Shown here: piece by piece, positions 15,167-37,281 of the stretch | Position numbering within the stretch: position 1 is the first letter of the stretch | Layout of the letters: each line of letters opens with the position of its first letter | NCBI GenBank assembly: GCA_964641575.1 | Contig: CAZXMP010000006.1 | Span: 1,627-65,626, forward strand | DNA length: 64,000 nt | DNA from: an uncultured Chitinophaga sp. | Lineage (GTDB): Bacteria; Bacteroidota; Bacteroidia; Chitinophagales; Chitinophagaceae | Reading direction: 5' to 3' | Program-made: the position numbers and the translations under genes | Notes under the pieces: generated by a model | Seen by the model: only the letters and a program-made list of their open reading frames with translations | Database searches by the model: none | What the model was told of the DNA's origin: nothing

Positions 15167-15231
15167 CATGCTCAGGGTTTTTATACCTTGAACCCCTCTG
15201 GCCCATGCGGAGGGGTTTTTTTATTTACCCG
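15167..15231 (+). ncRNA. Candidate small RNA, copy 1 (seed plus intrinsic terminator); 5' end unknown
   Basis: 65-nt block nearly identical to 18001-18066. Ends in an AACCCCTC...GAGGGGTT hairpin plus T7. Lies between the upstream terminator and the downstream promoter. Confidence 0.5.
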
Positions 15232-15638
15232 TATAGCCATACCGGAGGCGTAGTTGCCTTAGCGAATTCGGATTTTCCGAAGCCTTAACAAAGTAGGTTT
15301 ACCCCATGAAACTTTAGCCAGAAGTTTTTTGTTCACCCTTTTATAGCGATTCAAAAAAAAGATTAAACTTTTTTTAAAAAATCGTAAATCTACCTTGCAG
15401 GTATTACGTTGGGTTTTTACTTTTACATCACTTCAGAATTCGTACCTATACAAGAGCCACATTTAATCAGCGTCCTTAGTACGCATCCACCCTTTCTACT
15501 GTAAAACCCCTTAAGAGTTTTTATTTTTTAATTACCCATATCGGGTCCAATCCTGCATAAAGCCAACGGTTTATTATCCATCCGCTAAAACCACCACGGT
15601 TACGGAGTTATTTATTTTTTAATTATAAACCATTGAGC

Positions 15639-17861
15639 ATGAAAAAAATTATTTATTTAAAAGGATTTCTTTCCTTACTATTTGCTATAATAGCAAATCT
15701 GTTGTTTTCGCAAACAATTACTTTTACTTCCCCTGTATCGGGTTCAACAACAAATGTTACTAACGGTAGCAATCTTTCTATAACAGCTGAAAGAACTACT
15801 GCGAGTTGGAACGGCGGAAACAGCAACTGGACTTTTAATTTTAATGTTGTTTCAGGACCAGTAGGTGGGGTAAGCCTTTCTCCTGATCCTATTTCAGGAA
15901 ATAATATTGAAGAAGCAACAACAACGGCTACTTTCTCAATTATTGGTACTTATGTTATAAGCTGTACGGTGAATGAAAATGGCGGTGGCGAGACCCATAC
16001 TACTAGCACAGGGAACAATATTACCATAAATGTGGTAGCACCTGTACCACTTACTCCTATCGGTTGTAACGGCCAGTTTTATGTTAGCTATGGGCCAACT
16101 TCTGGTGCAAACGGTAACACACTTCTGAATAAACTTACATTTGCTGGTAGCAATTTATCAGCATCTTCTTTCCCGGTTAATCCAGGAAGCATGGGCTTTA
16201 ATTCAATGGGCTTAAATCCAATTGACGGATATATTTACGCTGTACGCTATCCAGCTGGTGGAGGCAAATCCCGCTTAATAAGAATTGGCAATGGATTACC
16301 AAATCAGGTTGATTTGGGTGAAATAGCAGCACTCAACACAGGTGAGATTTCTTACTCAGGTTGTTTTGATGAAAACGGGGATTACTATTTTACTACAAAC
16401 TCAGGCACTGGTTCTGGAAGATTGATGAGAATAACAAATGCCAATCTTGCAGCAAGAACCGCTACACAGATTGCAGCCAGCGGTTTCACTAGTATATATG
16501 ATATCGCAATCAATCCTGTTAATGGACAGATGTATGCCACTAATTCAAGTACCGGTGCAAATTTCCTTGCTACTGTAAACAAAGCAACTGGCGCAATTAC
16601 GACCATAGCTGGTGGTAATGCAGGAGGTAATTTCTTTGCAGGCCTGTTCTTTGATGAAGTGGGCGAATTGTATGGTTACAGGGCGAACGGCTCCTTCTTC
16701 CAAATCAATAAAACCACAGCGGCTCTTTCTGCAGCAGGAAGTGGTGCCGCTTATTCCGGAGCCGATGGCTGTAGCTGTAGCTTTGGCCGTGTGTTTCATG
16801 ACCTGGATTTTACGCTGAATCCGAGCAACCAAATTTGTCCCAGCCAAATGAACCCTACATTCCCGTTCCCGCTAACTGTTTCTGTAACGAATGAATCAAG
16901 CAGTCAACAAACTGGTCTTACATATACCCTTGATATTTCCGACCCTGCTAAAAGACTTGTGTTTACAGAAAGCAGTGCTACCATAAAAGCAAATTTTATT
17001 ACAGCCGGACTTGCTACTGTTGCCTCAACAGTAACACTTTCATCGGCCACCCCTGGCGATCCAATCAATAAATTGGTTATTACAGGTTTTCAAACTGGTG
17101 GAGCTGATGCAACTTTAAGCGCCGTATTACAGGTAGCTGTAGCAACATTGGGAGGCACCTATCTTCCTGTTCCTATTCAATCTGAAATTACCGGGCTAGA
17201 TCCTGTGTTTGGTGGTAACGATTTATCGAACGACCCGACTTCCATTCCTCCGGATGATGCTACGGTAATTACTTTCTGCCCGAACATTACACTTCCGGTA
17301 ACCTTGTTAAGTTTTGGTGGCAACTTAAATAACAATACTGCACAACTTGATTGGAGCGCAGAAAATCAAATCAATTTCTCGTTCTATTCAATTGAGCGTA
17401 GCATAAACGGTGTTGACTTTAAAAATGTAGGTACACAAGCCGGTCTGGGTACCAATACAAGCAGAGAGCAATACCAATTTACTGAAGACCTTTCTGCGGA
17501 ACATTCTAATATATTCCTCTATCGCCTTAAAATGGTTGATGTAGATGGTACTTTCAAATACAGCAATGTAATTGTACTCAAGAGGGATGAAGGTGCTACA
17601 CCGGGTATCAGAATTAACCCGAACCCATTAGTAAGAGGTGGCCAGGTTTCAGTTGTATTTAATTCTCCAAAAAAGAATACGGTTGACTTTAAAGTAATTG
17701 ATATGTCTGGTCGCATAGTAGCAACGCAGCGCAGTAATGTAGCTGAAGGAGCTAACAGTGTTGCTATCACCAGTCTTGATAAACTACAACCGGGCACTTA
17801 CGTATTGCAAATGAACGATGGTATTGCAATACAAACAGCTAAGTTCGTAGTAGCTAAATAA
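15639..17861 (+). CDS. T9SS type-A secreted protein (Ig-like plus propeller-like domains), paralogous C-terminus to 12883-15033
   Basis: Start ATG 15639; signal peptide; TLPVTLLSF...FLYRLKMVD...INPNPL...LQPGTYVLQM. Confidence 0.85.
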   Translation: MKKIIYLKGFLSLLFAIIANLLFSQTITFTSPVSGSTTNVTNGSNLSITAERTTASWNGGNSNWTFNFNVVSGPVGGVSLSPDPISGNNIEEATTTATFSIIGTYVISCTVNENGGGETHTTSTGNNITINVVAPVPLTPIGCNGQFYVSYGPTSGANGNTLLNKLTFAGSNLSASSFPVNPGSMGFNSMGLNPIDGYIYAVRYPAGGGKSRLIRIGNGLPNQVDLGEIAALNTGEISYSGCFDENGDYYFTTNSGTGSGRLMRITNANLAARTATQIAASGFTSIYDIAINPVNGQMYATNSSTGANFLATVNKATGAITTIAGGNAGGNFFAGLFFDEVGELYGYRANGSFFQINKTTAALSAAGSGAAYSGADGCSCSFGRVFHDLDFTLNPSNQICPSQMNPTFPFPLTVSVTNESSSQQTGLTYTLDISDPAKRLVFTESSATIKANFITAGLATVASTVTLSSATPGDPINKLVITGFQTGGADATLSAVLQVAVATLGGTYLPVPIQSEITGLDPVFGGNDLSNDPTSIPPDDATVITFCPNITLPVTLLSFGGNLNNNTAQLDWSAENQINFSFYSIERSINGVDFKNVGTQAGLGTNTSREQYQFTEDLSAEHSNIFLYRLKMVDVDGTFKYSNVIVLKRDEGATPGIRINPNPLVRGGQVSVVFNSPKKNTVDFKVIDMSGRIVATQRSNVAEGANSVAITSLDKLQPGTYVLQMNDGIAIQTAKFVVAK

Positions 17862-17885
17862 TACTTTTTTAAAATACACTAATAT

Positions 17886-17914
17886 GGGGATGGCCTTGTG
17901 TCATCCCCTCTTTT
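17886..17914 (+). terminator. Intrinsic terminator
   Basis: GGGGATGG-ccttgtg-TCATCCCC followed by TCTTTT. Confidence 0.7.
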
Positions 17915-18000
17915 CCAGCCTCAACATAGTACCCTGTTCTTATAATAAAGTAGGGAGTTGCTAACAGACGAATAATATTATGATTAGTAAATCAGACGAT

Positions 18001-18066
18001 CATGCTCAGGGTTTTTAGACCTTGAACCCCTCTGGCCCATGCGGAGGGGTTTTTTTTATTTACCCG
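18001..18066 (+). ncRNA. Candidate small RNA, copy 2
   Basis: Differs from 15167-15231 by one substitution and one extra T. Confidence 0.5.
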
Positions 18067-25750: not shown

Positions 25751-25912
25751 AATAATGGATTCGATGGTATCAGAATATATAAACGATTTTTTTGAGCTTT
25801 TCGTATAACCAAGGCTAATTGTCAAAAACAAGGCCAGAATAGGGTAAAAGCTCATTCAACAGTCTGACAGTTATTAAGTTTGGTATTATCTTTAACGTCT
25901 TATTATCACCAC

Positions 25913-27028
25913 ATGAGCAAAACAGTTACCATTCAATCAGTAGAGTTATATAAATTATCTATTCCGCTTATTGAGCCTTTTATTACTTCATTAGGTACAG
26001 ATGAAGCCGCCGAGAATGTTGTAGTAAAAATATTTACCAACGAAGGCATTATAGGTTTTGGCGAATGCAGTCCGTATATGCCGATCAACGGGGAGAGCCA
26101 GGCCAGTTGTTTTATTACAGGCCAATATTTTGCCAAAGCATTAAAAGGAAAAAATGCATTGGATATTGAAGGCTGTATTGAATTGATGGACTCAATCATA
26201 TACGCCAATACCAGTATCAAAAGTGCATTTGATATGGCTTTGTATGATATTGCTTCGCAACATGCGGGAATGCCACTGTATAAATTTTTAGGTGGCGATA
26301 ATACTAAAACGATCATTACAGATTATACCGTTAGCATTGGCGAACCAGAAAAAATGGCGGCGGATGCAGTTAAAATAAAAAACCAGGGCTACCCTGCTAT
26401 AAAAATTAAGTTGGGTAAAAACGGAAAGAAGGATGTAGAAAGAATAAGAGCTATCCGCAAAGCAGTAGGCAATGAAATACCATTACGTATTGATGCTAAC
26501 CAGGGATGGAAAGTTAATGAAGCGATTGAAACATTAAAGGCTTTGCAGGAGTTTGACATACAACATTGCGAAGAACCGATTGCCCGCTGGAAATTTATGA
26601 AGTTGAAAAAAGTAAAGAAGAACAGTCCTATTCCTATTATGGCAGATGAATGTTGTGGTGATGAGCATGATGCCGAACGATTGATTGAATTAGGGGCTTG
26701 TGATTATTTTAATATAAAACTCGGAAAGTCCGGCGGTATTTTTAAAGGATTAAAAATGGTGCGGATGGCAGAAGCTGCTAATATTCATTTGCAGGTTGGT
26801 GCGATGATCGAATCCCGGTTAGCAATGACCGCTTTTGCACATTTCTCTTTATGCAGCCCCTTAATAGAACATTTTGATTTTGATACGGCACTTATGTTCA
26901 GAGAAGACCCCGTAACCGGTGGCATACAATATAAAGCTAATGGTGTGATAGAAGTACCGGAAGTAGCCGGGCTTGGTGCTACTATTGATGAAGGGTGGTT
27001 GAGTAAGATGGAGAAAGTGGTTGTTTAA
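25913..27028 (+). CDS. Dipeptide epimerase (L-Ala-D/L-Glu epimerase-like, enolase superfamily)
   Basis: GFGECSP, IKIK, IDANQGW, EEP, ADE, NIKLGKSGG. Start ATG 25913. Confidence 0.88.
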   Translation: MSKTVTIQSVELYKLSIPLIEPFITSLGTDEAAENVVVKIFTNEGIIGFGECSPYMPINGESQASCFITGQYFAKALKGKNALDIEGCIELMDSIIYANTSIKSAFDMALYDIASQHAGMPLYKFLGGDNTKTIITDYTVSIGEPEKMAADAVKIKNQGYPAIKIKLGKNGKKDVERIRAIRKAVGNEIPLRIDANQGWKVNEAIETLKALQEFDIQHCEEPIARWKFMKLKKVKKNSPIPIMADECCGDEHDAERLIELGACDYFNIKLGKSGGIFKGLKMVRMAEAANIHLQVGAMIESRLAMTAFAHFSLCSPLIEHFDFDTALMFREDPVTGGIQYKANGVIEVPEVAGLGATIDEGWLSKMEKVVV

Positions 27029-27170
27029 ACACCTGTTGACTGATTTGTATTGTCGCAACTTTTGGGTGTGGTTACAATCCTTGCATAAATACAGTTAACA
27101 AATTGTAAATCAAGTTGACAGTACTGCATTACTCAAAAATTAAAAGCTTCGTATATTCGAAAATACATAC

Positions 27171-28273
27171 GTTAGCAGCCATTAAACAGCATTACAATGA
27201 TACCAACCTACGAACAAATAATGTTACCTCTTTTGAAGTTCTTAAGTGACAAGCAAGAACATTCACTCCAGGAGGCGCATGATATTTTAGCCAATCAATT
27301 TAGTTTAACAGAGGATGAACAAAGGGAATTATTACCTAGTGGTCAACAGCCAATATTTAGAAATAGACTTGGTTGGGCGAGAACATATATGAGTAAAGCC
27401 TGTTTGCTTGAATCAACCAAAAGAGCTCATTTTAAAATTACCGACCGAGGCCTTTCTTTACTAAATGAAAACCCATTAGAAATAACAGCCGAATATCTTT
27501 ATAGATATCCGGAATTTGTAGAATTTAAATTATTTCGCAAGCCTAAGGATGACAATGCTTCTATAGATTTCAATCCACCTGCAGAATATAAAGAAATTGA
27601 AAGCAATATAACCCCTGAAGAAACTTTGGAGTATGCTTTTCAAAAATTACGATCCGAATTAGCCAAAGATGTTTTAGATGTAGTAAAAAGTTGTTCTCCG
27701 GCTTTTTTTGAAAAACTAGTTGTTGACCTATTAATTAAAATGGGATATGGCGGTTCTAGAAAAGATGCAGGACAGGCACTTGGTAAATCTGGGGATGGTG
27801 GAATTGATGGAATTATCAAAGAAGATAAACTCGGTCTTGATACTATTTACATTCAAGCAAAAAAATGGGAAAACAGTGTCCCAGTAAAAGAAATTAGAGA
27901 TTTTACAGGAGCATTAGCGTCAAAAAAGGCAAGGAAAGGAATATTCATCACAACATCATCATTCCCTCAAAGTGTTTATGAATTTGTAACTCAAGTTGAA
28001 TATAAAATTGTTCTAATTGACGGCGCCCAACTGGCTTATTTTATGATTGAAAACAATGTCGGATTATCAACAACAAATGAGTATCAAATAAAAAAAATTG
28101 ACACAGACTACTTTGAGGAAAATTAACGGCTGCTAACAAAAGGTTTTGTGCAATTGGGGCATGATGTTGCAGCAATCATCGGCAGTGTGTCTTTTCCTGA
28201 AATAGGTTGACAGTAAATCAACCAAAATGGACATCAGAAATATCCGGCCTGCTGCACAACCTGTACGTTTATG
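27171..28273 (+). mobile_element. Integron-like gene cassette carrying mrr (candidate)
   Basis: GTTAGCAGCCATTAA (27171-27185) and TTAACGGCTGCTAAC (28123-28137) are inverted repeats (14/15). An imperfect ~140-nt hairpin follows and ends at GTT (28267). Confidence 0.55.
27197..28126 (+). CDS. mrr: Mrr type IV restriction endonuclease
   Basis: Mrr_N (LLPSGQQPIFRNRLGWARTYM) and catalytic GKSGDGGIDGII...IQAKKW. Confidence 0.93.
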   Translation: MIPTYEQIMLPLLKFLSDKQEHSLQEAHDILANQFSLTEDEQRELLPSGQQPIFRNRLGWARTYMSKACLLESTKRAHFKITDRGLSLLNENPLEITAEYLYRYPEFVEFKLFRKPKDDNASIDFNPPAEYKEIESNITPEETLEYAFQKLRSELAKDVLDVVKSCSPAFFEKLVVDLLIKMGYGGSRKDAGQALGKSGDGGIDGIIKEDKLGLDTIYIQAKKWENSVPVKEIRDFTGALASKKARKGIFITTSSFPQSVYEFVTQVEYKIVLIDGAQLAYFMIENNVGLSTTNEYQIKKIDTDYFEEN

Positions 28274-28334
28274 GTAATTGCAGAGCTACATTCAAACCAA
28301 CAAATAGATAAAAACCTCAATGACAATTTGAACA

Positions 28335-29522
28335 ATGAAAAAATATTTCTCACCAACGCAGGCTTTTACTTTTCTGACAATAGTACTTTTTGCCACTGCC
28401 TGTAACGGACCCGTTAAAAAAGACTTGTCAAAAGAAAAGCTAAGTGAATCAAATAAAATAGCTGATACACATCCAAAACTTATAAAAACCATTGGCTCGC
28501 CTAAATATGGTAATGTTCAATGTGCTCTGCAGGACAAAGCCGGTAACCTTTGGTTCGGCACCACAGAAAATGGTTTGTATAAATATGACGGTAAATCGTT
28601 TACCCAATTTTTAGTGGCTGATGGTCTAAACAGTAATAATGTTTCTTGCATTTTGGAAGATAAAGAGGGTAAAATTTGGATAGGTACTGGTGCAGGACTT
28701 TGTCTTTACGACCCTTCAACTTCACCCAGTACTGGTGGTAAAACATTTGCTGAAATCGAGATCCCTTTACCCAAAAACCTCCCCCCCAACAAGAATGAGT
28801 TATATCGCAACTCGCATTGGGTATTCAGCATCATGCAGGCAAAAAGCGGAAAACTATGGTTCGCTACAATAGATGGTGTTTATATCTACGATGCCCGCCT
28901 GAATGACGAAGTCGGGCAGGGCAAATCCCTGCCTACCGGACAGGCAGGCTTTACTCCTTTTATAGTTAATGAAGGCGCAGGCGGCTTTCTTAATAGTAAC
29001 AATAACGTTGAACGTATTTTAGAAGATAAAGCAGGTAACATTTGGTTTGGATTACGAGCCAATGAAGGTGTGTATCGTTACGATGGTAAAACTATAACCA
29101 ACCTTAAACTAAAGGAATTATTTCAAGACGGGCCAAAGCCAAAACCTCATAATTGGGCATGGCCTCAATTACAAGATAAAAACGGGAATATTTGGTTCAG
29201 CAATTGGGGTGGGGCCTACCGGTATGATGGCAAATCATTTACAAGTTTTACAAAAAAAGATGGCTTACACGGTGGTGTTACACGGATTATAGAAGACAAA
29301 AAGGGAAACCTTTGGTTTGGCGGTGATGCTAATGCCGGACTTAGCCGTTACGATGGCAAGTCTTTCACTCGTTTTACATCAAAAGATGGCCTACTCAATT
29401 ACAGTATTTGGTCAATTTTGGAAGATAAAACTGGAAATATTTGGGTGGGTACCAGGGAAACAGGTCTGTACCTTTATGATGGAAATACATTTATTACTTA
29501 TTCGGAATATAAGCACCAGTAA
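28335..29522 (+). CDS. Lipoprotein with two-component-regulator propeller (Reg_prop) repeats
   Basis: Lipobox ATAC; repeated EDKxGNxWFG...G[LV]YRYDGKSF blades. Confidence 0.85.
   Translation: MKKYFSPTQAFTFLTIVLFATACNGPVKKDLSKEKLSESNKIADTHPKLIKTIGSPKYGNVQCALQDKAGNLWFGTTENGLYKYDGKSFTQFLVADGLNSNNVSCILEDKEGKIWIGTGAGLCLYDPSTSPSTGGKTFAEIEIPLPKNLPPNKNELYRNSHWVFSIMQAKSGKLWFATIDGVYIYDARLNDEVGQGKSLPTGQAGFTPFIVNEGAGGFLNSNNNVERILEDKAGNIWFGLRANEGVYRYDGKTITNLKLKELFQDGPKPKPHNWAWPQLQDKNGNIWFSNWGGAYRYDGKSFTSFTKKDGLHGGVTRIIEDKKGNLWFGGDANAGLSRYDGKSFTRFTSKDGLLNYSIWSILEDKTGNIWVGTRETGLYLYDGNTFITYSEYKHQ
28713..28949. repeat. Three short in-frame insertions (two palindromic) in propeller turns
   Basis: 28713-28736 (PSTSPSTG), 28893-28919 (ARLNDEVGQ) and 28929-28949 (LPTGQAG) interrupt the YDGKSF consensus. 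Confidence 0.75.
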
Positions 29523-29600
29523 GTCTATAAAGTGGAAGAGCTGAAATTCTCTGTATTCGGCAATACCCGAACCGCTATAACACCTACAACCAAAAATAGT

Positions 29601-30224
29601 ATGACAGATCCCTGGATAGAAAGATGGAATGAAAGATATAGTAAAGACGAATTTGCATATGGCGAGCAGCCTAATAACTATCTAAAAGAGCAATTGGAGA
29701 AGTTAGCTCCCGGTACCATACTTTTTCCCGCAGAAGGGGAAGGACGTAATGCAGTTTTTGCCGCCAAACTTGGCTGGAAGGTTGCTGCATTCGATATTAG
29801 CAACGAGGGAAAAAATAAGGCTATTAAACTTGCCGAAAAAAACAAAGTAGTAATTGATTACCAGGTTGGCGAATTGCAAACATTGAACTTTAAAGCTGAA
29901 CAGTTTGATGCGATCGCCTTAATCTATGCTCACTTCCCTGCATCCATTAAATCGCTTTACCACAAAACATTTGACTCCTATTTGAAAAAGGGGGGAGTAA
30001 TTATTTTTGAAGCATTCAGCAAAAAACATATTGATTATGTAACGGCAAATGAAAAAGTGGGTGGACCTAAAGACATAGAAAGTTTATTCTCAATAGAAGA
30101 AATACAGGCGGACTTTCCGAATTATGAAATTATAGAATTAGCAGAAAAAGAAATTGAGTTAAGCGAAGGGATTTTTCATAATGGGACTGGATCTGTAATA
30201 AGATTTGTAGGACGAAAAAAGTAA
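29601..30224 (+). CDS. Class I SAM-dependent methyltransferase
   Basis: [26 protein letters not shown] motif I. Start ATG 29601. Confidence 0.88.
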
Positions 30225-30376
30225 ATAGCTTATAAAAGAAAGTTTATACTTATTGTGAATTACGTAACCACAACTTGTTCTCCTCTCCCGGCTTTTCTCT
30301 TTAACAATTAGTGCCTTGTCTTTCTGAAGCCATAAATACACACAACAACCATACGTACTTTAAGGCCTAAGTTGAT

Positions 30377-30631
30377 TTATTTCCCCATTATATCTAAGAC
30401 AAACAATGCAAGGGTAATTGATAAATGCAACACTAACCAAACTTGCTGATACACCGGACGCTTATTAAAAGGCCTCTGTAAATCAAACGGATCAAACACC
30501 AGGGCCAATCCCCAAAAAATAACGGCCTGTGAAATATCTTTTTGAATTAAAAACCAACTGCCCACCAAAATAAAAACAACATAAGCTGGTTTATTAAAAT
30601 TTCGTACTGCCGGGTTTATTTTTGTTTCCAT
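30377..30631 (-). CDS. Small two-to-three-TM membrane protein
   Basis: Hydrophobic segments; FWGLALVFDPFD...PFNKRP.YQ. Confidence 0.65.
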   Translation of the reverse strand: METKINPAVRNFNKPAYVVFILVGSWFLIQKDISQAVIFWGLALVFDPFDLQRPFNKRPVYQQVWLVLHLSITLALFVLDIMGK

Positions 30632-30687
30632 CGCCTATTTTTATTTATTAGTTGCAGCTTCCTGCTCATTATTACAGAAGCCGTACA

Positions 30688-31302
30688 TTATTTTTCCTCT
30701 TCCAACGCCTCAATATTTTCTTTTAATGTTTTCATATGCTTGCCAAAGCTGTATTTGAACATCCATTTGGTTACATACCAACAGGCAGGTACCAGTACAG
30801 CAAGTGCTATTAGTAATGTGATCCACATCACCGGCTTGCTCATCAAAACAGCAACTGATTTTCCGGAGCCGGAAACACCACCCAGCATAAAACCACCGGT
30901 TGCACTTATCGGGTAAATGAACAAGGCCACCCGCTGCTGCGTATTCATCCAGTTGGTAATGGATTGATAATGCCTTTTCAGTTCATGCAGCACCGGGTTA
31001 GTAGGCGAAATAACAGCATTGATATTTTTGTATTGCAAAAAGGCCGTATATAAAGCCCATATTGAAAAGAGGAGTACCAAAAAAATACATAGCTGTACCT
31101 GCCATATCCGGAAATAAAAGATAGCTACCACATATAAAAGACAGATCAATACACCCCAGATCATATTGAGCAGTAAATTCTTTTTTATTTTTTCCAATGG
31201 GTTATGCGAAGAAATAGTTAAAAGCCTGGATGATTTCAATAGTGAGGACAGATCATCATCCTGCGGCTCATTTATTTCGTTCCATGTTTTATTGGTACTC
31301 AT
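30688..31302 (-). CDS. Four-TM membrane protein, candidate anti-sigma factor
   Basis: Four hydrophobic helices; coupled to the ECF sigma gene. Confidence 0.6.
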   Translation of the reverse strand: MSTNKTWNEINEPQDDDLSSLLKSSRLLTISSHNPLEKIKKNLLLNMIWGVLICLLYVVAIFYFRIWQVQLCIFLVLLFSIWALYTAFLQYKNINAVISPTNPVLHELKRHYQSITNWMNTQQRVALFIYPISATGGFMLGGVSGSGKSVAVLMSKPVMWITLLIALAVLVPACWYVTKWMFKYSFGKHMKTLKENIEALEEEK

Positions 31303-31304
31303 TT

Positions 31305-31781
31305 TTATGTTGTTAAAAGATTACCCAATTGTTGTTTGATCCGATGCAATTTCACTGCCACATGATTGTTAGAAATACCCAGCATTTCTGCCACTTCTGC
31401 ATTTTCATATCCATCAATATTCATAGAAATGATGGCCCGGTCTGTTTCAGGTAATTGCCGGATGGCCATTCTCAATCGTACAACATCCTCATTTTGCACC
31501 ACACTGTTTTGTACAGCAGGAGAAATACTTTCCAACGAATCTTTGTAGTCAACCCGTTGGGGTTTTCGTTTTTGTGTTAAGATGGTATTTAAACAGATAC
31601 GGTAGAGCCAGGTGCTAAACTTAGCTTCCTTGCGGAAACTGGGCCACCCTTTCCAGGCCTGTAGCAATATTTCCTGGTACAGATCTTTTTTTTCCTCTGT
31701 ATCATTCGCATACAAGCCTACCAGTTTATAAATAATGCCCTGGTTTTGCCGTACCTGTTCTAAAAATGCTGCTTCGCTCAA
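31305..31781 (-). CDS. ECF RNA polymerase sigma factor
   Basis: DLYQEILLQAWK...FSTWLYRICLN (region 2); ENAEVAEMLGISNNHVAVKLHRIK (region 4). Confidence 0.92.
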   Translation of the reverse strand: MSEAAFLEQVRQNQGIIYKLVGLYANDTEEKKDLYQEILLQAWKGWPSFRKEAKFSTWLYRICLNTILTQKRKPQRVDYKDSLESISPAVQNSVVQNEDVVRLRMAIRQLPETDRAIISMNIDGYENAEVAEMLGISNNHVAVKLHRIKQQLGNLLTT

Positions 31782-31784
31782 GTT

Positions 31785-32726
31785 CTAAAGTTTTATTGGA
31801 GTAAGGGTATATCCAAGCAACTGCAATTGTTTTATCAATCCAGATGAACCCGCCAGGTGCAATGCACCCACTGCAATAAACTGCGATTCTTTTTTCAGCA
31901 ACCCGGGCAGTGTTTTCATCCACTTGTTATTTCGATTCGTTAAAAAATCATTTTCATTGCCAAATACGGCTAGTCCCCTTTCAGAAACGGCATACATTTT
32001 TTCAAGGTCATGCTTAAACCAGTTATCTATCAGTTCATTTACCTGGTTGATCATATCATTCTTATTACGCAAAAAAAGTTTTAGCTGATCAACCTGTTCT
32101 TCATTAGTAGCACTGTTAAATAATAAATTCATCTGTTCTTCAATAGTTTCAAATTCCGTTACTGTTTTACCTGCCTGCTTACCTGCTTCGGCAAAATAAC
32201 CATCCAGCATAGCACCCGAATATTTTTGTAATGGCGAATTCAAATCTGATATCAGGTAAGCCATAGATAGAGTAAGTGCAACATTTATAGGTTTTAATTG
32301 GTTTATCTGTTCTATCCCAACGCCTAATGTAGTTCTCAGTTCTTTATCCAGGCTATCTTTAAAAGGCTTATCCAGCAAATCCGAAAGTGTTTTGTTTTGA
32401 AGCATTCCCATTGATCTGCCAGCAACTGTTTTTGCGGAGTCGAGCACTAATTCCACAGCTACTGCTTTTGCTTTATTAAAGGCACGCAGCACTTCAGGCA
32501 CTTCACTCAAATAACTACTTTTTACTAAATGATAAGTTCCAAACAACCAGGAAGTGTCTTTTAATCCATTTCCTGTAATAGCATAAAAATTACTTTGTTG
32601 GCTGGCCTTCTGGGCATTAGTTGTAAAGCCAGATCCGATTCCAAAAATAAATAGCAACAGTGTAGCTGCAATTCGTACCGTATAAATTCTTTCTTTTATA
32701 AATTTTGTTGAATGATAAGTAGTCAT
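31785..32726 (-). CDS. TraB/GumN-family protein
   Basis: SWLFGTYHL...FETIEEQ...RNNKW...FIAVGALHLAG. Confidence 0.88.
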   Translation of the reverse strand: MTTYHSTKFIKERIYTVRIAATLLLFIFGIGSGFTTNAQKASQQSNFYAITGNGLKDTSWLFGTYHLVKSSYLSEVPEVLRAFNKAKAVAVELVLDSAKTVAGRSMGMLQNKTLSDLLDKPFKDSLDKELRTTLGVGIEQINQLKPINVALTLSMAYLISDLNSPLQKYSGAMLDGYFAEAGKQAGKTVTEFETIEEQMNLLFNSATNEEQVDQLKLFLRNKNDMINQVNELIDNWFKHDLEKMYAVSERGLAVFGNENDFLTNRNNKWMKTLPGLLKKESQFIAVGALHLAGSSGLIKQLQLLGYTLTPIKL

Positions 32727-32938
32727 TTTAATAATGTTTATTAAACGTTTTTAATTGTCCGGACTGTTAACGGATAATTAGTAGCAACACCTCATTAAAA
32801 ATTACAAGGAGAAGAAAAAAAATATCAGCTCTGCCATTTTTATAGTAAACCCTTTTGCAACAAAGCTTATATACAAAAATTTTGTGGGAGGAATAATCAG
32901 CTTCAATGTATAATACGTAATGATAAAAGTCGCAGGGA

Positions 32939-33577
32939 CTATCTGATCTTTTCCTTCGGCCTTTTTTCTTTCACAATCGGCGCATTATCTTTCCAACGCC
33001 ATAAATGCACACAGGCATAAGTGCGGTAAGGACTCCATTTTTTGGAGAGGCGGAGCATATCTTCTTTTAGTTTCTTTTTATCGGTATTGTCGAGCTTGTA
33101 TAATTTGATCATGGCGTTTTGAATACCGAGATCATCTACGGCGAATACATCTTCTCTTCCGAGAGCAAACATCAGCAGCATTTCTATTGTCCATCTTCCC
33201 ACTCCTTTTATTACGATGAGGTATTCTATCACTTCATCATTGGTCATTTTAGCCAGCTTCTTGGCATCCATACCAAACGCTTTTTCAAACTGGGCTACAT
33301 TTTTTACATAACTCACCTTGTTGTTAGATAAACCAATGGCTCGTAATTTTTCAAAAGGGGTGTCGAGTATTTGTTGTGCAGTTGGTTCTTTGTCGCCATA
33401 TAAAGTAAGGAACCGTTTATAAATTACATCAGCAACTTTGGTGGATAACTGCTGACTCATGATGGAAGCGCAGAGATAGATGCAGATATTTTTTCTTTTT
33501 ATTAGTTTGTGTGTTTGACCATTCTCAACAAGTTTTTTAAGCTTCTTGTCCTTTGCTAAGTGAGAGATGTATTGCAT
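32939..33577 (-). CDS. DNA-3-methyladenine glycosylase II (AlkA/HhH-GPD family)
   Basis: IMSQQLS, LRAIGLS, IKGVGRWTIEM, DDLG, WSPYRT. Start ATG 33577. Confidence 0.9.
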   Translation of the reverse strand: MQYISHLAKDKKLKKLVENGQTHKLIKRKNICIYLCASIMSQQLSTKVADVIYKRFLTLYGDKEPTAQQILDTPFEKLRAIGLSNNKVSYVKNVAQFEKAFGMDAKKLAKMTNDEVIEYLIVIKGVGRWTIEMLLMFALGREDVFAVDDLGIQNAMIKLYKLDNTDKKKLKEDMLRLSKKWSPYRTYACVHLWRWKDNAPIVKEKRPKEKIR

Positions 33578-33609
33578 TGTTATTAAATAATCAATTTGAA
33601 TATAAACTG

Positions 33610-33687
33610 AACCACGGAGACACAAAGCTCACGGAGATTCACGGAGAAAAAATCAACGTACCGCTGTGTCACTTACCCTCCTTGGTT
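33610..33687. repeat. CACGGAGA tandem units with an inverted counterpart
   Basis: CACGGAGA at 33613, 33630 and 33640. AACCACGGAG (33610-33619) versus CTCCTTGGTT (33678-33687) is 9/10 inverted. Confidence 0.65.
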
Positions 33688-35482: not shown

Positions 35483-36235
35483 TCATGCCTCTGCCCAGGC
35501 CCGAAAATGTGCTACCCGTTCCCGGCTTATGATCATTTCATCTTGCTGCGTACTTCCTTTTACAGAAAGTTTTAGCCGGCTATTGTAATACGGTTTTACT
35601 TGTTGTATAGCATCTATATGTACAATAAAGCTGCGGTTAAGCCGGAAGAAATGTTGCGGGTTCAATACATCTTCTAATTGCTCCATGGTATAATCCACCA
35701 CATATCGGTTGCCTTCCTTATCTACTACATGAACAATTTTATTATCCGCCTGGAAAAAAGCGATGTTGCTGGATTCTAAGAAAAAAAGTCGTTGCCCTAC
35801 TTTTCCTAAAAAACGTTTTTTGTATTTTTCTGCGGCAAGTGCTGGTGCCAGTTGCCTGAAATCAACAGCAGTGAAAGTACCCTCTAATAATTTTAATTTA
35901 TTGATAGCTGCAGCCAATGCCTCCAGTGTAACGGGTTTTAAAATATAATCGATACTGAAAAGTTTAAAAGCTTCCAATGCATACTGATCGTAAGCCGTTG
36001 TAAATATTATTGGCTTGTTATAGTTAACTTGTTTAAAAATTTCAAAACTTGGGCCGTCGGATAAATGAATATCCAGCAATAATAAATCCGGATGCGGATG
36101 CAGTTTAAAATATTGAACCGTTTCTTCAATGCTTTCCAAACAGGCAACTACTTCTGCGTCCTTATCATATTCTTTTAATATGGTTTGGAGCCTTTCAGCA
36201 GCCAATTTCTCATCTTCTACTATTACTATTTTCAT
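35483..36235 (-). CDS. LytTR-family response regulator
   Basis: REC domain (VEDE, LLDIHLSDG, FTTAY, KP) plus LytTR domain (FFRLNRSFIV, ISRER). Confidence 0.95.
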   Translation of the reverse strand: MKIVIVEDEKLAAERLQTILKEYDKDAEVVACLESIEETVQYFKLHPHPDLLLLDIHLSDGPSFEIFKQVNYNKPIIFTTAYDQYALEAFKLFSIDYILKPVTLEALAAAINKLKLLEGTFTAVDFRQLAPALAAEKYKKRFLGKVGQRLFFLESSNIAFFQADNKIVHVVDKEGNRYVVDYTMEQLEDVLNPQHFFRLNRSFIVHIDAIQQVKPYYNSRLKLSVKGSTQQDEMIISRERVAHFRAWAEA

Positions 36236-36240
36236 ACCTA

Positions 36241-37281
36241 TCAGTTTAAGTTAAGCAACGGCAGGCTTACTTCAAATTCGGTTGCTGTTTTTTTAATATC
36301 AATATCTCTACCGCTTATAAGCTCATATCTTTTTTTAATATTCTGTAATCCAATTTTGGTAGAGGGCTCCACCATTTGGCGGGGCTGCAGGTTATTCTTT
36401 ACTACCAATGTTTGGCTGCCATTGGCATGTATATCAATATGCAAGGGCTTATTCCTGCTTACTATGTTATGCTTGATGGCATTTTCAATCAACATTTGTA
36501 AGGCAGCGGGTACCACATGCCAGGTTTTATAATGCTCCGGTATGTTTATACTAATTACAAGGCCTTCATCAAATCTTTTTTGTAAAAGAAAAAGATACGG
36601 TGTGATAAATTCCAACTCTGATTTTAATTCTACCAATTCTTTATCCTGGTTACTTAATATGTACCGGTACACTTTTGAAAACTCTTCAATAAAATGATTG
36701 GCCTCCGGGTTATTTTTTATAACCATCCCCGATAGTACATTAAGATTATTGAATAAAAAATGTGGGTTAATTTGACTTTTAACTAATTGCACCTGTGCTT
36801 GTGTAGTTTTTTTTCGCAGGTCTTCCACTTCCATCCAATGCCTTTTATACTCCCGGAAGAAAAATAAAATGGCATTTAGTAAATGAAAGAAAAGATTAAT
36901 GAGGCTGGCATAGATAATATTTAATTTAAGTGGATTGCTGTTTTGCTCCCAGGTATAGCCGTGAAAAATATTACCCACCAAAAAAACTACCAGTAAAGCA
37001 GATAGCGGTGCTACTACATTTCCTGCCAGGAAAAAGAAACCTAAAAAATGAATTTTTCCTTTTTGTGCTAAAAATTTTCTTTTAAAATAGGGTTTAATAA
37101 GACGATTACCTTCCCATGTGAGAAAGGTTATACCGGAAATAGTCAACAGTGCATAATACCATTCAATTTCAATATTGAAATAATAATAGACATCGCACAA
37201 CACTGTATTTAAAAAAGTGTATGCAGATAGAATGGCAATAAAGAGGTAGCGGTATTTATGGTTAAATAACATAGTGCCCAT
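36241..37281 (-). CDS. LytS-type membrane histidine kinase
   Basis: N-terminal TM helices; KSQINPHFLFNNLN, LQMLIENAIKHN, KIGLQNIKKRY. Confidence 0.93.
   Translation of the reverse strand: MGTMLFNHKYRYLFIAILSAYTFLNTVLCDVYYYFNIEIEWYYALLTISGITFLTWEGNRLIKPYFKRKFLAQKGKIHFLGFFFLAGNVVAPLSALLVVFLVGNIFHGYTWEQNSNPLKLNIIYASLINLFFHLLNAILFFFREYKRHWMEVEDLRKKTTQAQVQLVKSQINPHFLFNNLNVLSGMVIKNNPEANHFIEEFSKVYRYILSNQDKELVELKSELEFITPYLFLLQKRFDEGLVISINIPEHYKTWHVVPAALQMLIENAIKHNIVSRNKPLHIDIHANGSQTLVVKNNLQPRQMVEPSTKIGLQNIKKRYELISGRDIDIKKTATEFEVSLPLLNLN

Follow-up and report, generated by a model that had tools for sequence, protein, structure and literature searches.

An mrr gene in an uncultured Chitinophaga genome as a probable cassette of an integron-type recombination system

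The stretch of DNA analysed here, hereafter the window, comprises 64,000 nucleotides (nt) of contig CAZXMP010000006.1 from an uncultured Chitinophaga sp. (assembly GCA_964641575.1), and carries at positions 27197-28126 of its forward strand an mrr gene for a protein of 309 amino acids (aa). Pfam places Mrr_N at residues 5-90 (4e-32) and Mrr_cat at residues 164-283 (1.3e-34), the PADLOC model mREase_IV matches residues 2-307 (1.4e-88), and the reading frame is open, with GDGGIDG...IYIQAKKW; judged by its sequence, mrr is an intact gene for a type IV methyl-directed restriction endonuclease. The gene is bracketed by an inverted repeat: GTTAGCAGCCATTAA (27171-27185) begins 26 nt 5' of the ATG at 27197, and TTAACGGCTGCTAAC (28123-28137) runs across the stop codon (TAA, 28124-28126), the two arms being complementary at 14 of 15 positions, as an earlier note on this DNA had described. 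To the left, after the gene for an epimerase of the enolase superfamily (MR_MLE; 25880-27028, forward strand, Pfam MR_MLE_N/C), lies a conserved element of ~130 nt that we call UP (27042-27170, forward strand), and to the right lies an attC-like site (28128-28273, forward strand) belonging to a family of ~45 such sites in the same genome. We argue below that mrr is, with good probability, a gene cassette belonging to a site-specific recombination system of the integron type that is native to this Chitinophagaceae genome.

The genome is a fragmented metagenome-assembled genome (MAG) of 4.21 Mb in 328 contigs with 4.5% contamination. It is referred to as G000, contigs of a named genome carry C-numbers, and other G-numbers denote related genomes, of which 40 from the same order were compared with it (41 genomes in all). 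Recurrence of the flanks of mrr was followed by a DNA search across the 40 relatives and by BLAST against the genome itself; apart from a homologue of mrr in G022, matches to the mrr region elsewhere are limited to the intergenic flanks.

The mrr cassette extends from T27172 to G28267 and comprises a 25-nt leader, the mrr open reading frame (ORF) and a long attC-like site of its own, with crossover inferred at G27171|T27172; its docking point is the GTT at the end of UP, directly after the epimerase gene. The bounds from this G|TT to the GTT of the distal box, together with the cassette's own attC-like site, lend support to the integron-like reading that the earlier note had offered. The site begins with an R'' box, GCTGCTAAC (28129-28137), which lies within the 3' arm of the inverted repeat and was placed by models of attC 5' halves at E=2.9e-14 and 6.6e-6. 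A spacer AAAA, an L'' arm (28142-28159), a loop, an L' arm (~28247-28266) and the R' box GTTTATG (28267-28273) follow. Within the arms, TTGTGCA occupies 28146-28152, one base off the coordinates 28145-28151 given previously, and TGCACAA (28253-28259) and the GTT at 28267-28269 are present as noted. The pairing of TTGTGCA with TGCACAA is the covarying stem of the attC family, and the duplex of the site's own stem amounts to -23.9 kcal/mol. As for the large imperfect hairpin that had been proposed here, 28123-28280 folds no better than shuffled sequence on either strand (z = 0.19 on the forward and -0.47 on the reverse strand).

UP (nhmmer E=1.4e-31 in the window) occurs six times in G000 without indels, on contigs C6, C233, C26, C47, C235 and C41, at nhmmer E-values from 1e-29 to 5e-38. 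Its conservation stops exactly at ...AATACAYAM|GTT, after which each copy runs into a different gene. The 17 copies collected from G000 and six relatives have five conserved blocks in common, and the sole consistent pairing among them joins the terminal arms TGTATTnnCG and CGnnAATACA, ~105 nt apart, with nine pairs and one compensatory change; in the window these arms are TGTATTGTCG (27046-27055) and CGAAAATACA (27158-27167), and the second overlaps an invariant box, TTCGTATATTCG (27148-27159). UP has no AAC box upstream and so offers a single crossover point, the GTT at its 3' end. The idea that UP is the preceding attC was rejected, the repeat being one-sided, and we consider that it would correspond functionally to an attI. 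UP lies directly 3' of a recombinase gene on C41 and in G013, and copies in five relatives likewise precede cassettes. G013 has six matches, some of which are truncated or fall at contig ends that are collapsed; in G000 and G013 alike, most copies sit away from the recombinase, after ordinary chromosomal genes. At one of the loci in relatives (L065, G044:C18) a HigB/HigA-like toxin-antitoxin pair of 97 and 84 aa forms the cassette between UP and attC, in keeping with the cassettes of this kind that typify large chromosomal integrons.

UP may also contain a promoter. A scan for sigma-70-type promoters found no more sites than in shuffled sequence, with a model that does not cover Bacteroidota promoters. 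The -7 promoter motif of Bacteroidota is TAnnTTTG, and the box TTCGTATATTCG holds TATATTCG, which is one base off that motif and a lead only. Two array sites on another contig (C10:36307-36542 and C10:42069-42282) end in a diverged UP-like block (...GAAAGTTTCGTATATTTTTGA|GTTAGCGG) in place of the usual 3' stem arm, and TATTTTTG in these blocks is an exact instance of TAnnTTTG; the blocks may be internal promoters for the cassettes downstream. A short CGTATAT/ACGT motif recurs immediately before the GTT crossover in attI-like stretches from distant hosts, as in Winogradskyella (...TAATACGTATATCCAATT|GTT, L085:9114-9160), in G015 (...AAATTTACGT|GTT, L021:2861-2973) and in the UP box of the window; this motif may be a recombinase-binding or promoter core.

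A genome-wide search for similar GTT/AAC sites, which the earlier note had recommended, returned them in abundance both here and in relatives. Searches used nhmmer models of attC 5' halves and a hidden Markov model (HMM) of 3' halves rebuilt with longer flanks; in G000 they match ~20-40 5' halves and 44 3' halves (E<1), and many of the sites stand in arrays of co-oriented small ORFs. The array at C10:31.7-47.2 kb has ~20 small ORFs on one strand, many of them followed 5-15 nt past the stop by a site of 95-245 nt; contig C43 carries another array. Among relatives, at least eight sites lie downstream of the recombinase on G019:C2, and large arrays are found on G022:C19 and G004:C31. In the layout common to the family, R'' (..CTAAC) is separated by 3-5 unpaired nt from L'' (GGGTTTnnTGCAA..), and beyond a long loop come L' (..TTGCnnAAGCCC), a further spacer and R', the last in variants such as GTTAGGC, GTTAGCA and GTTGT... 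The 29 sites with both halves assigned measure 93-314 nt, with a mode of ~193-202 nt. An AAC end of R'' is found in 23 of 24 sites, and GTT at 45 and GTTR at 40 of 50 cassette starts; the classical extended boxes are rare (RYYYAAC in 1 of 24, GTTRRRY in 6 of 50). That GTTAGCA at the start of the mrr cassette deviates from GTTRRRY, as was pointed out before, is correct, but it is no caveat, being normal in this family. No Rfam family matches the mrr region or the window as a whole.

One subfamily of sites, starting with AAC ATGAACTGTGTAAAAAAGCAAATAAATTTTTT..., falls at contig ends (C10:52874, C21:50, C26:29886, C235:50) and recurs at C43:21119, C229:2698 and C250:1126, and the last site of the integron in G015 starts alike. 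The assembly thus breaks within arrays, whose true extent exceeds what the contigs show.

In integron cassettes the GTT at the start and the AAC flank after the gene derive from one attC, a point on which the earlier note had relied and for which the family as a whole now speaks. For 21 cassettes, bases 4-15 of the cassette start were compared with the flank of the cassette's own AAC box and with those of other cassettes: own flanks match at 6.38 of 12 positions and cross pairings at 4.02 (Mann-Whitney p=2.6e-4), in an automated pairing that merges some cassettes. The mrr cassette gives the top value, 14 of 15. Other cassettes docked at UP match their own R'' flank at 12/15 (C47), 11/15 (C233) and 9/15 (C41) and, by reading, at 11/12 (C26), and UP-docked cassettes in relatives do so, again by reading, at 14/15 (G015) and 10/10 (G016). 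A cassette start that matches its own distal AAC flank is the pattern expected if cassettes circularise and recombine at G|TT.

These comparisons bear on the suggestion that the inverted repeat marks an invertible segment, or a transposase-less mobile insertion cassette or miniature inverted-repeat transposable element (MITE), which we regard as highly improbable. A 14/15 repeat around one whole gene is what such an element would look like, and insertion sequence (IS) elements are active in the same sequences, yet the left arm at mrr lies in the conserved context of UP and the right arm in that of attC, the genes of an array share one orientation, and there is no target-site duplication at mrr. 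A MITE is further disfavoured in that R'' and the adjacent R' of the same site are no more complementary than random pairs (4.43/12, p=0.18, not significant), whereas the boxes across the gene are. The 10-nt direct repeat GTTGACAGTA (27114 and 28206) was considered as a target-site duplication and discarded, being at chance level and having its copy at 28206 inside an IS3 fragment.

Taken by themselves, the arms of mrr are weak evidence, because such repeats are common in the window: 14/15 inverted repeats spaced 300-1200 nt apart number 8 distinct pairs, compared with a mean of 3.3 in shuffled sequence. This count, with the non-significant local fold, is what might recommend the view that a chance inverted repeat happens to lie beside unrelated intergenic repeats. 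We hold that view to be extremely improbable, and the repeat at mrr to be more than chance, because both flanks belong to repeat families, the complementarity is family-wide, the TTGTGCA/TGCACAA stem covaries, and the same arms flank a second gene in the same arrangement, on contig C5, with GTTAGCAGCCATTAT before its ATG and TTAACGGCAGTTAAC across its stop. The C5 locus (C5:10200-11600, minus strand) is itself a mini-array, in which a 157-aa membrane-protein cassette between these two arms has attC on both sides and a further small ORF upstream.

Duplexes of L'' with the L' of the same site are stronger, at a mean of -21.9 kcal/mol, than cross pairings, at -15.8 (p=1e-4), and an RNAalifold consensus of 24 trimmed sites has 13 pairs, 11 of them with compensatory changes (for example AU:8/CG:8 and AU:10/UA:8). 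Stems comprise 15-24 pairs with mostly 1x1 mismatches and no bulge that recurs at one place. Close to the stem's base, 19 of the 24 sites have a T.G pair at a fixed place (columns 22/72 of alignment A1), which in the mrr site joins T28145 to a G in the L' arm and on the opposite strand would be a C.A mismatch. This conserved T.G may mark the strand used, in place of extrahelical bases; fold energies of the top and bottom strands of attC sites show no difference.

Covariation of this kind fits an RNA as well as it fits single-stranded DNA, a T.G pair is tolerated in RNA, and the sites start just past stop codons, all of which would suit repeats acting at the RNA level, either as 3' hairpins for transcript termination or stability or through pairing of 5' and 3' untranslated regions that controls translation; the match of mrr's leader to its 3' flank would then be regulatory rather than a trace of recombination. 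Such an explanation leaves several things unaccounted for, namely that the conservation of UP ends at GTT, that different genes lie between the same types of site across loci and species, and that the sites are tied to a tyrosine recombinase. We consider it quite improbable as an alternative to recombination, though RNA and recombination roles could coexist.

The attC-like site of mrr has itself been altered. Its loop holds the left end of an IS3-family element, a remnant of 53 nt (28188-28240, forward strand) that is 98% identical to the ends of contigs C17, C161 and C250. A full copy on C250 encodes a 123-aa helix-turn-helix OrfA and a 285-aa rve OrfB (with ...HSDRGMQYCS...); an IS3-family element has two such ORFs and a terminal repeat starting TG, and assignment to IS3 was by reading of these ORFs, not by profile search. 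The closest intact relatives of the site, C43:23717-23523 and C10:41282-41474, lack the remnant and have ~105 nt more loop, and R'', L'' and L' are kept in the mrr site. The simplest history would be an IS3 insertion into the loop followed by a deletion that left 53 nt of the element and removed ~105 nt of loop. Because its attC has undergone this insertion and deletion, the mrr cassette may be hard to excise, and this copy is possibly fixed.

The same IS, or a diverged relative, occupies the equivalent loop position, ~58 nt past the AAC box, in at least four other attC sites; outside the window the element is located at C17:1-55, C161:1-55, the contig end of C250, C43:~1480 and C29:~1218 (C43b and C29 being diverged). 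This recurrence suggests that the IS3 element may have a target preference for attC-like sites. In classical integrons attC is targeted by IS1111-attC insertion sequences and group IIC-attC introns, and one IS in the same loop position of several attC sites resembles these cases; the element here differs from them in being of the IS3 family, neither IS110/IS1111 nor an intron, and in the mrr site 53 nt of it are left.

What enzyme might move these cassettes? The candidate is a tyrosine recombinase of 417 aa encoded at C41:24108-25361, with Pfam domains Phage_int_SAM_4 and Phage_integrase. On C41 the recombinase gene, UP, a cassette starting GTTATGCG, its 198-nt attC and the next GTT follow one another on one strand. 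The recombinase gene is likewise followed by UP in G013 (E=2e-24), by at least eight attC sites in G019 and by one cassette in G006, and G028 has a short form of it, with another family; in total it is co-oriented with arrays or directly 5' of UP in six genomes (G000, G013, G015, G019, G006 and G028). Across the 40 relatives, a sequence-only model of attC 5' halves (R1) gives matches in 17 of 21 genomes that have the recombinase and in 5 of 19 that do not (Fisher p=6.6e-4).

The earlier note had proposed a search for a tyrosine recombinase with the IntI insertion, and this proved fruitless in G000 and the 40 relatives: no protein reaches the 265-bit cut-off of TIGR02249, including in 100%-complete assemblies of few contigs, and the best matches cover model positions 2-180 and 240-315, lacking ~180-240. 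The C41 protein scores 200 bits against the NCBIfam model XerA/'integron integrase', 167 against XerC, 165 against IntI and 157 against XerD, all below cut-off. Among solved structures its closest relative is the integron integrase VchIntIA (2a3v), on sequence (1.5e-31) as well as fold (4.5e-14), with XerA next. Where VchIntIA has a 59-residue insertion the C41 protein has 17 residues, and its AlphaFold2 (AF2) model (pLDDT 74.8) shows a loop at 314-332 without an extra helix. The C41 protein has an intact catalytic set of R, K, HxxR, H and Y, which does not vary among 26 homologues. At the other end, residues 1-85 form a confident beta/alpha domain in the AF2 model that no Pfam family matches. 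When it is modelled by itself from distant homologues (pLDDT 85), its fold has weak matches (E 0.06-0.3) to the damage-recognition domain of XPB, the HARP domain of SMARCAL1 and the mismatch-binding module of MutS, which are a lead only. On sequence and predicted structure the C41 recombinase is IntI/Xer-like, without the IntI insertion and with an extra N-terminal domain. Homologues in its family number in the thousands and carry no annotation beyond 'tyrosine-type recombinase' or XerD; in the genus the family is patchily distributed, 13 of 24 congeners having it.

It could be that the cassettes and attC sites are real and that their mover is a different enzyme, be it a missing canonical IntI, a XerC/D-like protein or the enzyme of a mobile element, the C41-type gene being a mere frequent neighbour. 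The link of that gene to the sites is by adjacency and co-occurrence, five genomes have attC without it, many assemblies are fragmented and break inside arrays, and the protein has no IntI insertion. Set against this are the failure of every protein in the 41 genomes to pass TIGR02249, the placement of the recombinase co-oriented with arrays or before UP in six genomes and also in three other families, its closest solved relative being an integron integrase, and a patchy distribution in the genus that is unlike a housekeeping Xer. We therefore judge another mover to be unlikely, if less so than the other alternatives discussed here, and retain the C41-type enzyme as the candidate.

Comparison of the locus between genomes shows what else has occupied it. 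The epimerase, the left anchor, has 76-83% protein identity and is syntenic with the genes upstream of it in nine congeners, in all of which other genes follow it and mrr is absent from the locus. In G015 a recombinase gene and two cassettes come directly after the same epimerase, in the position of UP and mrr here, and the genes past that integron match window positions 32939-33625, 35483-36235 and 36241-37281 (86, 74 and 80% identity). The first of these is the right anchor, a gene for an HhH-GPD glycosylase (32939-33625, reverse strand; Pfam HhH-GPD) that lies outside the cassette. Because synteny in G015 frames an integron platform in the interval from epimerase to HhH-GPD, that interval is a shared hot spot, holding the platform in G015 and a docking site with the mrr cassette in G000; the two-sided anchor comes from G015 only. 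The sole homologue of mrr found among the 40 relatives, in G022, is 76% identical at the nucleotide level over the ORF only and stands in another array, with the attC of another cassette directly upstream and its own attC lost. Stable synteny of mrr in the clade, which would have spoken against a cassette, is thus not what is seen.

From these elements a mechanism can be proposed. The C41-type 417-aa recombinase would move the cassettes, acting in trans on the six dispersed UP sites, and the attC sites would probably react as folded strands. The mrr gene would probably be transcribed from within or through UP, and its product would probably give methyl-directed restriction of phage DNA. A circular form of the cassette is predicted with the junction ...CTGCACAACCTGTACG|TTAGCAGCCATTAA, and the emptied UP would be joined to TTTATGGTAATTG.

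Several observations weigh against reading mrr as a cassette moved by this recombinase. To our knowledge, six attI-like sites per genome are without precedent in classical integrons. In the relatives, attC matches are found without recombinase in five genomes and the recombinase without attC in four, and what links the recombinase to the arrays is adjacency and co-occurrence only; in a fragmented MAG, the parts that failed to assemble could harbour a canonical intI. The attC of mrr is damaged by the IS3 remnant and the loss of ~105 nt of loop, and its 3' half, with R' reading GTTTATG, falls below the threshold of the family's 3'-half HMM, which bears out the degenerate right end remarked upon earlier. 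Folded singly, the mrr attC, UP copies and array sites give no significant z-scores, and the merging of cassettes mentioned above affects the own-versus-cross test. There is no clean empty allele among the congeners, which are ~77% identical and each have different genes after the epimerase. An identical Mrr is encoded on two public metagenome contigs, and the longer of them is arranged as here, a gene upstream of mrr taking the place of the epimerase; an exact-protein look-up of the epimerase returned no record. Finally, the C41 recombinase is without the I2 helix insertion, which the literature treats as required for attC recombination: the additional domain is what defines IntI (bioRxiv 10.1101/2022.02.06.479319), and the I2 helix is presented as the innovation enabling single-strand recombination (PMC7790495).

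The recombinase is not confined to the order: among species-representative genomes, a scan turned up homologues elsewhere in the Bacteroidota that share its N-terminal domain. The genus-specific attC HMMs do not reach other classes of the phylum, and loci there were read directly from the DNA, revealing downstream co-oriented cassettes of the same layout in genomes of Flavobacteriaceae, Cyclobacteriaceae and Cryomorphaceae. Past the recombinase of Winogradskyella ursingii HL4150 come a short attI-like stretch with CGTATAT and then GTTGTAGCC..., closing with ...GGCTACAAC, and own-end matches are 12-13 of 13-15. Own-end matches are 13/14 in Flavobacteriaceae S0862 and in Aquiflexum sp. TKW24L, and 13/14 and 14/15 in a Bacteroidetes MAG; a Cryomorphaceae MAG has the same layout, own complementarity across these loci being 10-14/15. 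A crude automated version of the own-versus-cross comparison gives 5.5 vs 3.1 in the distant loci (p=0.013). The system is found in cultured strains, namely Winogradskyella ursingii HL4150, Aquiflexum sp. TKW24L and Adhaeribacter terrigena BT258, and is thus bench-testable.

We raise, tentatively and as something well short of established, a broader possibility: a widespread class of integrons particular to Bacteroidota, whose folded attC sites would be recombined by an IntI/Xer-like enzyme that either never had or has lost I2, its N-terminal domain reading DNA shape in place of that helix. In this genus a single recombinase would serve several attI-like sites scattered along the chromosome, which would make the integron a distributed one, mrr occupying one outpost. 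Among Bacteroidetes earlier surveys had only integrase-alone elements, and there is now one complete integron, in Salinibacter ruber (IntegronFinder 2.0, bioRxiv 10.1101/2022.02.28.482270); reviews name Bacteroidota among the integron-bearing phyla without detail (PMC8618304). We found no published description of the present system in the full-text literature searched, a limited collection, and it is plausible that standard integron searches miss it. The mrr locus belongs to an abundant cassette system, with a likely recombinase devoid of I2, in a phylum where surveys report almost no integrons. If this is true, cassette capture evolved, or persists, without the hallmark I2 domain, and finders keyed on the IntI domain and short attC sites undercount a large reservoir of mobile genes, defence genes included. 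The six dispersed attI-like sites likewise suggest an arrangement not described for integrons.

The closest likeness is to sedentary chromosomal integrons, to groups of clustered attC sites without an integron-integrase (CALIN) and to single attC sites, as exemplified by the superintegron of Vibrio cholerae with its V. cholerae repeats (VCR). Shared with these are co-oriented, mostly promoterless small ORFs between AAC/GTT palindromes, crossover at G|TT, cassette starts that match their own attC, related sites within a host, single cassettes away from the integrase, and a cargo of genes of unknown function, toxin-antitoxin genes and defence genes. The differences are that the recombinase here is without the IntI-specific domain and the attI-like site exists in six dispersed copies, that the sites are mostly 180-200 nt with stems of 15-24 bp and no fixed extrahelical bases, and that the boxes are GTTRK, not GTTRRRY, with complementarity of cassette ends reaching 10-15 nt.

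Integrons of the Treponema denticola type (PMC3607928) also have a recombinase co-oriented with the cassettes and a docking site just past its stop, but their enzymes are by definition IntI with the additional domain, which is absent here, where there is instead an N-terminal extension of 90-140 aa. Xer proteins (XerA, XerC/D) share with the C41 protein a core-binding SAM-like domain and a catalytic domain without insertion, and XerA is its second-best structural match. Xer enzymes are housekeeping proteins that act on short double-stranded dif-like sites, whereas the family described here is patchy (13/24 genomes), stands at the head of cassette arrays and has a further domain at its N-terminus. 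As to cargo, a compact single-gene defence system carried as one cassette has its likeness in anti-phage integron cassettes (bioRxiv 10.1101/2024.07.02.601686); host phylum and recombination machinery differ from those, and the defence role of Mrr here is predicted from sequence.

Two further features of the window lie outside the cassette. Elements of 65 nt after cargo genes of the type IX secretion system (T9SS; 15167-15230 and 17990-18060, range 15167-18066) were considered as attC and set aside, being terminator-type hairpins without AAC/GTT boxes. In the rest of the hot spot, no attC-like site is present at 28274-32938; the interval 28335-32726 encodes an extracytoplasmic function (ECF) sigma factor followed by a 204-aa ORF without Pfam match, and also a two-component-regulator propeller protein, a methyltransferase (a weak match to PADLOC mad2, 3.6e-10) and a TraB/GumN protein.

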